In this document: positions 60,001 through 63,000 of the stretch, in pieces
Layout of the letters: every line of letters begins with the position of its first letter
Numbering within the stretch: the first letter of the stretch is position 1
Source of the DNA: Chlamydiota bacterium
GTDB taxonomy: Bacteria; Auribacterota; Tritonobacteria; UBA1439
DNA: 64,000 nucleotides
Assembly: GCA_037133055.1 (NCBI GenBank)
Contig: JBAXOY010000001.1
Location: forward strand, 35,660-99,659
Reading direction: 5' to 3'
Program-made: the position numbers

Positions 60001-63000
60001 ACTGGTAGCCGCGCGCGCCGTAACCGTCGCCCGGCTCCTGGCGAAACTGCCCCCTTGCCACGCGGACCGTGAGCCGGTCGATCTTCCCCTTGAGCCCTAT
60101 GAAATGATTCGCCGCGTTTTCCTTCCCGGAGCGCCCCCATCCCGTTTCTCCCCCCATCCATGGGCGCTGGGCGAAGCGATGCGCGGTATGAAAGCAGAAG
60201 CCGTGCCCCCACCCGCCCTCCATGAGGAAGCGCACGAGCCCCCACGCGTCCTGGTCGAACTCCCCCCCGTCCTCGGCGCTCCTCACCACCACCGTGAGCG
60301 TCACGTCGAATCTGCCGTCCCTCTCCTCGCCGCACGATGCCTCCAGCTCGTCCGGGACAACCCGCTCGCGCGCGCCCGGGCCGGTGGGATTCTCGCGGAA
60401 CATGCTCCTCAGTTCGTCGGTGAGCGCCGCGCCGAGCGAATCCCCGCTGAGATGGCGCTCGCCGACGCGGATGAGCCCGTCCTCCACCGCGAGGCGCTCG
60501 CACTCCCTGATTTTCTCGTCGATGGAAGTGAGCTTCTTCTCGTCGGAGAAGATCCAGTACCCCATTTGCCGCGCGGAAATGAGGAGGCCCTTCGCCCGTA
60601 TGTAGGACTCCAGGCCGGCGTCGTACTCCGCGTCCGCCACCGCGTCGTCGCCCTCACGGAGCGCCATATCGACGTTTCTGGCCTGTTCGAAGGATGTCGG
60701 CACCGAGCAGCCGGCGGCGATAAGCGCCGTCACGCACACGAGAATCCGCGCAACCGGTTTCGGGTCGATCCGCATCTGGCTCACACAGGCGCTACTCGAG
60801 ACGGAACGCGTCCCGGACGAGCGTACACTCCCCGCCCCCGCCCGGCATCCATCGGATTCCCACCACGTCGAAGCGCGTGCGGGCGAGGCGCATGGAACAG
60901 GCGGAGAGATAGTGGTGCGCCGTCACGGCGAGGCGGCGGCGTTTGACGGGGGTGATCGCCTCCAAGGGAGAGCCGAACCGCATCGTGCTTCTCCCCTTGA
61001 TCTCGACGAAGACGACGATCTCCCCGTCGCGGGCGATGAGGTCTATCTCGCCGCGGGGACAGCGGTAGTTCCGCGCAAGGATCCGGTAGCCGTTCCCGCG
61101 GAGGAACCGCGCGGCCAGATCCTCTCCCCTGTCTCCCAGTCGCTTGTTCTGCACGGACATGCCCGGCGGGAGCCGCGGGTCGGTTAATGGGCCTTGCCGC
61201 TCATGCTCTCGCGGGTGTAGTAGAGCTTGGCCCTGCGGACCTGCTCCCGTTTCGCCACTTCGATCCTGGCGATCATGGGCGAATTGATGAGGAAGACCCG
61301 TTCCACGCCCTCGCCGTAGGATATCTTCCTGAGCGTCGCGGAGGCGTTGATGCCGCTCCCCTTCCGCGCGATCACCTGCCCCAAAAAAAGCTGGATCCGC
61401 TCCTTGTCGCCCTCCTTGATCTTCACGTGGACCTTGAGGGTGTCGCCGACCCTGAACTCCGGCAGGTCCTTCCTGAGAAACCCCTTCTCGATATCCTCGA
61501 TAATCTTCATCTCCATCTCTCCTTGATTTGTCAAATGCCGCCCCGGAGTTCCCGGAGCATCGACCGGTCCTCTTCCGTAAGCGGCGCCCGCGCGAGCAGG
61601 TCGGGCCTTCGCTCCATGGTCCGCCGCAGCGCCTCGCGCCTGCGCCATCGCCTGATCTTTTCGTGGTCCCCCGTGAGCAGCACCCCGGGGACCTCGATCC
61701 CGCGAAAGCTCCTCGGCTTCGTGTAGTGCGGATAATCGAGGAGCCCGTCGCAGAACGAATCCTCCCGCACCGACCGCGCGTCCCCCACCGCCCCCGGGAG
61801 AAGCCGCGTCACGGCGTCGATCAAAAGCATCGCCGCCAGCGACCCGTTGCTGACGACGAAATCCCCCACGGAGATCTCCTCGTCCGCCAGCAGCTCGCGG
61901 GCCCGCTCGTCGATCCCCTCGTAGTGCCCGCTGACGAGGAGGAGGTGGCTTTCGCGCGACAGCCGCTCAGCGCCCGCGTGGTCCAGCGGATTCCCCTGCG
62001 GCGTAAGGATCACCACGCGGGTCTCCTCCCCGCGCAGCTCCTCGACCGCGGCCGCGAGAACCTCGGCCATCATGACCATGCCGGCCCCGCCGCCGTACGG
62101 CGTGTCGTCGACCGTCCGGTGCCTGTCCACGGCCCAGTCACGGAGATTGCGGACGGCGAGGTCGAGAATTCCCTTCTCCCGCGCGCGCTTCATGATGCTC
62201 TCGTCGAAGTAGCCCGAGAACATCCCGGGGAAAAGGGTCAGCACATCGATTTTCAACGGTGACGGTACCCCCGGGCCCCAGGCGGGGCGCTACTCGATAA
62301 TCTCAAGCGTGGCCCGCAGATTCGCCCTCGCCGCAGCGGAGTCGATGAGCGTGCGGATGGATTTGATCGTGCGGCCGCTCTTCCCTATCACCTTGCCGAT
62401 GTCGCCCGGGTTGCAGCGGAGTTCGAAGATTACGGTCTTTTCGCCGTCTATCTGCGTCACGGCCACCTCTTCCGGGTGATCGACAATCGCCTTCACCGCA
62501 TATTCGATGAACTCCTTCATCGGTGTCTCACCCTCCTCGCCGGCGGGCGTCGTCCCTTATTTTTCAGCCTTTCTGGCGCCTTTCGACTTCTTCTCCTTCT
62601 CTATCCCCTCTTTTTTGAGGAAGGTCGAGACCGCGCCGGAAACCTGCGCGCCCACGCCCAGCCAGTAGAGAATGCGCTCCCTCTTCAGGTCAAAATTCTT
62701 CCCCTCGTCGAGAGGCCTGTACGTCCCGAGAATCTCGAGAAAACGCCCATCCCGCGGGCAGCGCTTGTCCGTCGCCACTATGCGGAAATAGGGCTCATTC
62801 TTCCTGCCCATCCTTCTCATCCTGATCACTACCGCCATTTGAACTTCCTCCCTTGCGTGATGTACATCTTTTTCCCGCAGAATAAGTTATATACTTACCC
62901 GTGGGCCATAAACAAACCCCGGCGCCCAAACGGGGGATTATACCACAGGAGGAGGCCGTCTGCGGGAATATTTTATACGTCATGGCATGACGAACTCGTG

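Follow-up and report, generated by a model that had tools for sequence, protein, structure and literature searches.

Ffh, FtsY and 4.5S RNA, the components of the signal recognition particle (SRP) system, vanished together in the class of the genome analysed here and, independently of this, in no fewer than four other lineages of its phylum. The loss is real, recurrent and of a kind already known, and it is wider than the initial annotation of this DNA held.

The rpsP operon in the window

The window, the whole stretch of 64,000 nucleotides that was analysed, is part of contig C1 of genome G000 (2.99 Mb in 191 contigs, 92% complete). On the minus strand the genes usp, rpsP, khpA, trmD, rplS and yraN follow each other in this order, each with a clear Pfam match:

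62980..63477, minus strand: usp, universal stress protein (Pfam Usp, E 4.6e-34)
62839..62979: spacer of 141 nt ahead of rpsP, where relatives carry ffh; neither the gene nor a remnant is present, and an Ffh profile has no match here
62557..62838, minus strand: rpsP, S16 (PF00886, E 2.7e-24)
62290..62520, minus strand: khpA, KH-domain protein (PF13083, E 5.5e-24)
62257..62289: khpA-trmD junction of 33 nt without rimM, as read from the sequence (RimM in 0 of 79 phylum genomes)
61531..62256, minus strand: trmD (PF01746, E 8.1e-62)
61184..61510, minus strand: rplS, L19, start at 61510 or 61516 (PF01245, E 1.2e-41)
60792..61160, minus strand: yraN, UPF0102 (PF02021, E 1.8e-30)

An operon without ffh and rimM had been described in the initial annotation, and this description was confirmed by usp upstream of rpsP and by the gap between khpA and trmD, which is only 33 nt long and therefore leaves no room for rimM. 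The missing rimM at this junction is the state of the whole phylum and is not tied to SRP; rimM is not known from the chlamydial rpsP-trmD operon either. At the other end, yraN follows rplS directly because rnhB has been relocated to contig C53. In all six loci of family f1 examined, usp lies upstream of rpsP, where SRP-bearing relatives have murA-ffh. The murA block of this family has moved (to contig C32 in G000) and usp has taken its place; therefore, the window is not a clean empty ffh site.

Absence of SRP components from the class

The class consists of nine genomes (G000 and G047-G054), all metagenome bins of 40 to 480 contigs each, seven of which are 92-96% complete. In G000, no match to the SRP54 family (PF00448), which covers Ffh and FtsY, exceeded the cut-off, and only 15 short P-loop matches were obtained. 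Profiles were also built from relatives, using 3 Ffh, 11 FtsY and 9 4.5S RNA sequences. The best hit of the protein profiles in G000 had an E value of 4e-4 and was a P-loop in a frame of 1069 amino acids, and nhmmer with the nine ffs sequences reached E 1.8 at best. A full Ffh, FtsY or 4.5S RNA was detected in none of the nine class genomes, and RF00169 (SRP RNA) was likewise found in none of them among the best 44 candidates scored per genome. The Ffh M-domain (PF02978) was absent from G047, with four out of four SRP-bearing controls positive.

The initial annotation had reported the SRP54 family in 0 of 9 class genomes. This holds for complete genes, but one fragment matches over the cut-off, a stretch of 57 Ffh codons situated at a contig end (G054:C416:14-184). 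This contig is a mosaic of 4.2 kb, the first 2.5 kb of which are a patchwork of unrelated gene pieces, and the DNA it shares with G000 is no longer than 54 nt. The fragment shows 47-59% identity to 22 of the 23 matching Ffh proteins of the phylum and 39% to the remaining one. Judged by these features, it is read as foreign or misassembled DNA. Since the ancestral sites of the genes are also empty, as described below, the earlier statement that the class is without Ffh, FtsY and SRP RNA stands, and the absence of SRP is practically certain.

Ancestral sites of ffh, ftsY and ffs

Of the 43 SRP-bearing genomes in which both genes were located, 40 have ffh immediately upstream of rpsP, and the three SRP-bearing loci inspected have the order prfA-prmC-murA-ffh-rpsP-khpA. 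In G047, a member of the class, the end of murA and rpsP are 190 nt apart and the ffh site is empty. The corresponding gap measures 30 nt in G001, about 46 nt in G003 and 225, 28 and 90 nt in G038-G040, all of them SRP-less, compared with 1307 nt (G024) and 1669 nt (G017) where ffh is present. The ftsY gene was found just upstream of ribD in 11 out of 11 SRP-bearing loci inspected, in ten of them after nusB; on contig C59 of G000, nusB and ribD overlap by their stop and start, and the ftsY site is closed up. Likewise, ffs is situated just upstream of dnaX in nine out of nine relatives inspected, and an unrelated ORF occupies this position in G000. Remnants of SRP genes were found neither in G000 nor at the empty sites examined. 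The ancestor of the phylum had Ffh, FtsY and 4.5S RNA, encoded at three unlinked sites, murA-ffh-rpsP, nusB-(PHP)-ftsY-ribD and ffs-dnaX.

Distribution of SRP within the phylum

Searches in 79 genomes of the phylum revealed 34 without Ffh and FtsY and 45 with Ffh and/or FtsY. The SRP-less genomes are those of the class (9), of family f3 (2), G003 (1), of f13 (4) and of f18-f22 (18). The number of 45 SRP-bearing genomes among the 70 outside the class agrees with the earlier count. A loss special to the class was not confirmed, as the other 25 of these 70 genomes, from f3, G003, f13 and f18-f22, are SRP-less too and represent at least four further lineages. Other SRP-less families had been named by the initial annotation itself as a finding that would speak against it.

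4.5S RNA (RF00169) was present in 41 of the 45 genomes with Ffh and/or FtsY and in none of the 34 SRP-less ones, with the best 44 candidates per genome scored; in one of the 41 the RNA is cut by the contig end and remains below the cut-off. Among the 41 genomes that are at least 90% complete, 14 are SRP-less, and S16, SecY and SecA were found in all 41.

A species tree was calculated from 19 ribosomal proteins, SecY and RpoA of 59 of the 79 phylum genomes and 18 outgroups (G048 was dropped as too short), and the placements in a second tree, obtained with IQ-TREE from 33 rows, agree with it. Both trees nest SRP-less groups among SRP-bearing ones. The class sits beside the SRP-bearing families f7-f10; f9, described earlier as its sister family, indeed has SRP but is only part of this sister clade. 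Furthermore, f13 is placed beside f14, G003 beside G004 and f3 beside f4, and f18-f22 form a long-stemmed clade. A single clade of the 12 SRP-less rows was rejected (delta lnL 1121, p-AU 1.9e-52). If regain is disallowed, SRP was lost five times in the phylum, and that there were several independent losses is very probable.

Ffh and FtsY in a neighbouring phylum

Among named genomes, the closest outgroups are mostly labelled Omnitrophota; according to the 33-row IQ-TREE tree, they may fall either outside the phylum or among its basal branches. PF00448 and RimM are absent from all five Omnitrophota-labelled genomes tested. As a larger sample of neighbours, the phylum of G079 was used, which was reached from an Omnitrophota-labelled record. 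None of 161 genomes of this phylum contained the Ffh M-domain (positive control: four out of four SRP-bearing genomes). When the best seven candidates per genome were scored for PF00448 in 401 sampled genomes, matches were obtained in 12, of which 11 were FlhF and one was a lone Ffh. Ffh and FtsY were thus not found in 400 of the 401 sampled genomes, a figure that comes without completeness values or a single-copy control. The genome with the lone Ffh, G289, has no second PF00448 match, and no other branch of the Ffh tree is as long as that of its Ffh. 4.5S RNA was found in none of five genomes of the phylum tested, G289 included. PF00448 was detected in 14 out of 14 control genomes, and the searches still picked up the much weaker FlhF matches. 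By these searches, Ffh and FtsY are all but absent from the sample of the neighbouring phylum.

Sec machinery and searches for compensation

G000 encodes SecY, SecA, SecG, a fused SecDF, YajC, YidC and trigger factor. The earlier conclusion that membrane proteins are targeted by SecA and YidC alone understates this equipment. Its other part, targeting by SecA, is plausible, although neither SecA nor YidC shows an altered sequence that would point to such a role. SecA is single-copy, and each genome of the class has a single yidC. A duplication of SecA was considered and discarded, the extra weak matches falling in giant ORFs or split genes. Loss of trigger factor was also rejected as a factor, the gene being kept in 71 of the 79 phylum genomes.

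SecA retains its N-terminus and the C-terminal cysteine motif. The ratio of SecA to ribosomal protein branch lengths was 0.97 in SRP-less and 1.04 in SRP-bearing genomes, and no overall shift in rate was detected in SecA or SecY (SecA of G056 was used for G057). A screen of 19 proteins for convergence, from which G003 was left out, revealed no convergent columns of the SRP-less lineages in L23, L29, SecY or YidC, three in three other ribosomal proteins and eight in SecA; the latter number was matched or exceeded in 23 of 330 relabellings and is not above chance relabelling. L23, L24 and L29 are present and unremarkable. An apparent loss of L29 turned out to be an artefact of the BLAST table, the profile detecting L29 in all 51 loci with L16 and S17. 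The hydrophobicity of the transmembrane segments of SecY and YidC showed no consistent shift with SRP loss: TM1 of YidC is more hydrophobic in f1 and f2 than in f7-f10, but equals that of SRP-bearing f11 and f12.

The surroundings of yidC, secY and rpsP did not reveal any new gene common to the SRP-less lineages. KhpA and Jag were considered as substitutes for SRP and rejected; both are kept in f1, but the other SRP-less groups examined are without them at these loci. The jag gene follows yidC in f1 and also in SRP-bearing f11 and f12, but not in the other SRP-less groups.

With a crude gene caller, 2345 genes were predicted in G000. A hydrophobic segment is present in 698 of the products, at least three segments in about 271 and at least six in 124, and K or R precedes 131 of the 153 single N-terminal hydrophobic segments. 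Signal peptides of G000 appear ordinary by this measure, and ultra-short ones did not turn up. From the 271 multi-segment proteins and the basic residues of the signals it follows that the need for membrane insertion is undiminished and that the signals are conventional. Decay of SRP as in endosymbionts was dismissed, as there is no tiny genome (1.8-3.8 Mb in the class and up to 4.8 Mb among SRP-less genomes of the phylum), no pseudogene remnant and no reduction of the membrane proteome. Taken together, no sign of compensation for the loss of SRP was found in the proteins and gene neighbourhoods examined and in the gene set of G000.

Possible explanations for the loss of SRP

The preferred explanation, to which we assign a probability of roughly 0.55, is that SecA and direct docking of ribosomes on SecYEG and YidC would suffice in slowly translating cells. 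SRP-less ribosomes making membrane proteins may use back-up routes that were already present. SecA would scan the tunnel exit and deliver nascent chains, ribosomes could also attach to SecYEG without a mediator while translating, and insertion of the helices would fall to the SecDF-YajC-YidC holotranslocon. Slow translation in anaerobes, the slow growth of which is assumed, would provide a long targeting window, so that SRP could become dispensable without any new part. In the available portions of the respective papers, SecA is described as binding to uL23/uL24/uL29, the same site as SRP (PMC8082313), RodZ as being targeted cotranslationally by SecA (PMC8082313, PMC5674894), and E. coli as surviving deletion of ffh when suppressor mutations make the initiation of translation slower (PMC7844537). 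The codon bias of ribosomal protein genes, taken as a proxy for translation rate, is equal in losers and keepers (median 0.046 versus 0.044, p 0.48; 18 versus 28 genomes with small backgrounds), and slow translation could therefore be only a shared permissive state. G000 has 45 tRNA genes. Against back-up routes as an explanation, nothing that positively points to them turned up, and SRP is retained by 45 relatives whose way of life is probably similar.

More tentatively, an unrecognised factor, be it a protein, an RNA or membrane-tethered ribosomes, could have assumed the task of targeting ahead of the loss of SRP, perhaps as early as in the ancestor that the phylum shares with Omnitrophota, which would explain why the loss recurs. 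It is possible, although doubtful, that both groups share an SRP-independent cotranslational targeting route which predates the losses and allowed SRP to be dispensed with five to six times. A shared predisposition is suggested by the five or more losses within a single phylum together with the 400 of 401 neighbour genomes, and G000 still encodes its roughly 271 proteins with three or more hydrophobic segments. Giant polytopic proteins in Omnitrophota, described in the accessible part of a preprint (bioRxiv 10.64898/2026.06.07.730766), and a novel gene among the sec genes of Leptospira, mentioned in the accessible part of PMC4758666, would also fit. However, the gene neighbourhoods of yidC, secY and rpsP yielded no shared newcomer, jag does not track the loss, and no candidate was identified.

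It is improbable that YidC acquired a long, basic C-terminal tail that binds ribosomes, in the style of Oxa1 or YidC2 of S. mutans, and thereby recruits them itself. Such a change would have parallels, as streptococcal YidC tails bind ribosomes (PMC8546722, in the part available) and a missing SRP may be made up for by YidC2 (PMC7844537, likewise in part). However, the tail after the last helix comprises just 7 residues in seven out of seven f1 proteins and 19 in G047. Among 70 proteins, in which kin are not independent, the median tail is shorter in the 29 SRP-less than in the 41 SRP-bearing ones (10 versus 13 residues, K+R 2 versus 3), and the longest tails belong to SRP-bearing f12 and f23. 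With a single yidC in addition, the tail version is largely refuted.

One early loss of SRP, followed by regain through transfer in the SRP-bearing families, is less probable still. The deep-branching f18-f22 and the neighbouring phylum are SRP-less, the base of the tree is not settled, and parsimony (5 changes) cannot separate gain from loss. However, in the SRP-bearing families ffh, ftsY and ffs each occupy a conserved site of their own, and the Ffh tree mirrors the clades of the species: calculated from 24 proteins, it recovers f7-f10, f11+f12, f15+f16, f5 and f23, each with starred support, the base being open.

That the absence is an artefact of bin incompleteness, or that SRP has diverged beyond detection, is hardly credible. 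All genomes are metagenome bins, a fragment of Ffh does occur in G054, and the RNA search covered the best 44 and the 401-genome search the best 7 candidates per genome. However, the high completeness of seven class genomes, the joint absence of three unlinked genes, the closure of the ffh and ftsY sites inside contigs and the positive controls, with weaker FlhF proteins detected, all argue against it.

Comparison with known SRP-less systems

SRP is taught as universal, and it is essential in E. coli. Natural SRP-less exceptions are few, and we know of none with an SRP-keeping sister for comparison. The pairs of losers and keepers found here, f1+f2 of the class with f7-f10, f13 with f14, and G003 with G004 within one family, make the question of what permits SRP loss open to comparative testing. 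Both ffh and ftsY serve as universal markers, and given this use, their absence would depress completeness estimates in SRP-less lineages. More weight than the window itself has the extension to Omnitrophota, a large groundwater phylum with giant polytopic proteins that are apparently inserted without SRP.

According to the part of PMC4758666 available, Leptospira is without Ffh, FtsY and SRP RNA, and Dehalococcoides and SAR86 are named there as well. These bacteria resemble the genomes studied here in that all three components are gone, Sec is retained and the genomes are not tiny. In contrast, the loss here recurs at least five times in one phylum with SRP-keeping sisters and also extends to all but very few of the genomes sampled from a neighbouring one, and no novel gene such as that of Leptospira was found among the sec genes. 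Suppressor strains of E. coli lacking ffh also live SRP-free on the remaining Sec machinery and provide a model for the mechanism, but theirs is a laboratory state with severe growth defects, as far as PMC7844537 was accessible. Membrane insertion without SRP is also known from S. mutans YidC2 and mitochondrial Oxa1 (available parts of PMC8546722 and PMC8321541), whereas the genomes here have one YidC with a 7-residue tail, no paralogue and no long basic tail.

No report of SRP absence in these two phyla was found in a search that left subscription journals mostly aside, and supplements may list it; nor did the search yield literature linking Omnitrophota to the signal recognition particle. 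The accessible parts of PMC9324843, PMC7987157, PMC8546722, PMC9099147, PMC8321541 and 10.1101/2021.01.31.429008 do not state SRP loss in these phyla. In its accessible part, the Omnitrophota preprint (bioRxiv 10.64898/2026.06.07.730766) mentions SRP once, as the canonical mechanism of giant-protein topology, frames insertion of these proteins by the canonical Sec/SRP/YidC mechanism and never mentions ffh or ftsY, while its KO supplement may list absences. If a shared SRP-independent route existed, it would insert the giant Omnitrophota proteins, which have up to about 147 predicted transmembrane helices according to the portion of the literature available.

RimM, RimP and L30

RimM and RimP were each found in none of the 79 phylum genomes (controls positive in 10 of 14 for either). 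L30 gave matches in two of the 79, both partial (controls positive in 13 of 14). The match in G023 is a spurious frame, and that in G064 lies at a scaffold gap and is a genuine fragment of S5-L30. Its S5 end is only 43-53% identical to the S5 of G068, G069 and G072 from the same genus, which suggests that the fragment is probably foreign. These counts support the earlier report that RimM, RimP and L30 are missing from G000; the S5-L15 adjacency noted on contig C43 was also verified, the two genes being 4 nt apart.

Their proposed loss together with SRP in the class found no support, as all 45 SRP-bearing genomes are without RimM, RimP and native L30 as well. Therefore, these absences are older than the loss of SRP and independent of it. 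A single streamlining event that removed all four would account for their absence from G000, but it can be dismissed almost completely in view of the phylum-wide counts, the absence of RimM, RimP and L30 from each of five neighbour-phylum genomes, and the L30 absence across PVC already published (PMC7203096, available part).

RimM, RimP and L30 were lost earlier, in an ancestor of the PVC type with the signature small basic protein. In the part of PMC7203096 available, this protein is considered a possible replacement of L30. No report of RimM or RimP absence in these phyla was found in the literature reached, most subscription journals being outside its scope. The signature protein (TIGR04137) was detected over the cut-off in G000 (80 bits) and in five out of five other genomes, and in none of the 14 controls. 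In the absence of L30 and the presence of TIGR04137 in all six genomes tested, the ribosomes are thus like those of the PVC superphylum, and the absence of RimM and RimP extends this pattern.

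Variation in the rpsP-trmD-rplS operon

Lineages without SRP that do not belong to the class of the source genome have no khpA between rpsP and trmD (loci L228, L231-L233, and others). This observation refers to rpsP loci of SRP-less genomes in families f3, f4, f13, and f18-f22. Where measured in these lineages lacking khpA at this site, rpsP and trmD are separated by 17-102 nt. The gene is retained at this position in f1 and f2, the two families of the class, and in the SRP-bearing families f9 and f11. At the other end of the operon, rnhB is absent from the window between rplS and yraN (61161-61183) and was found on contig C53 of the source genome; the order rplS-rnhB-yraN was detected in G047 of the same class, f3, G003, and f13.

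Ribosomal protein gene rplC

In the source genome, rplC, encoding L3, is located outside the S10 operon as a single gene:

G000:C28:8799-9455 (L180), rplC
L056:417-1069 (G000:C43), S10 operon region without rplC

In f1, G042, G045, G046, and f3, the space between S10 and L23 has room for just a single gene, but in G047 this gap is not restricted in this way.

SRP and Sec components in other genomes

Two full copies of the 4.5S RNA gene, about 900 nt apart, are located upstream of dnaX in G029 (G029:C18:74364-75384), and two copies are likewise present in G030. In G289, from the Omnitrophota-labelled neighbouring phylum, a full-length ffh stands alone without adjoining rpsP (L262, G289:C8:9534-13112). 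Neither ftsY nor 4.5S RNA was found in this genome, and this ffh is attributed to contamination or transfer.

In the SRP-less genome G003, secA is divided between two frames (L285, G003:C4:22999-24524); because SecA is expected to be indispensable, the break probably reflects an error in sequencing. Directly 3' of yidC, G038 encodes a secreted protein of 524 aa (L210:3378-4952), vWA-like as judged by eye; inserts of 1.2-2 kb follow yidC in other f13 genomes as well. SecY-like and SecA_DEAD-like domains are also contained in giant open frames of 2,000-19,500 aa:

G042:C3:73372-74346
G001:C66
G046:C42
f5 genomes

Repeats at the end of the window

Imperfect repeats, richer in AT than the GC-rich coding DNA, occupy positions 63560-64000 of the window, where several copies of a short unit of the type GATGAACGCAGAT occur in direct and inverted orientation.
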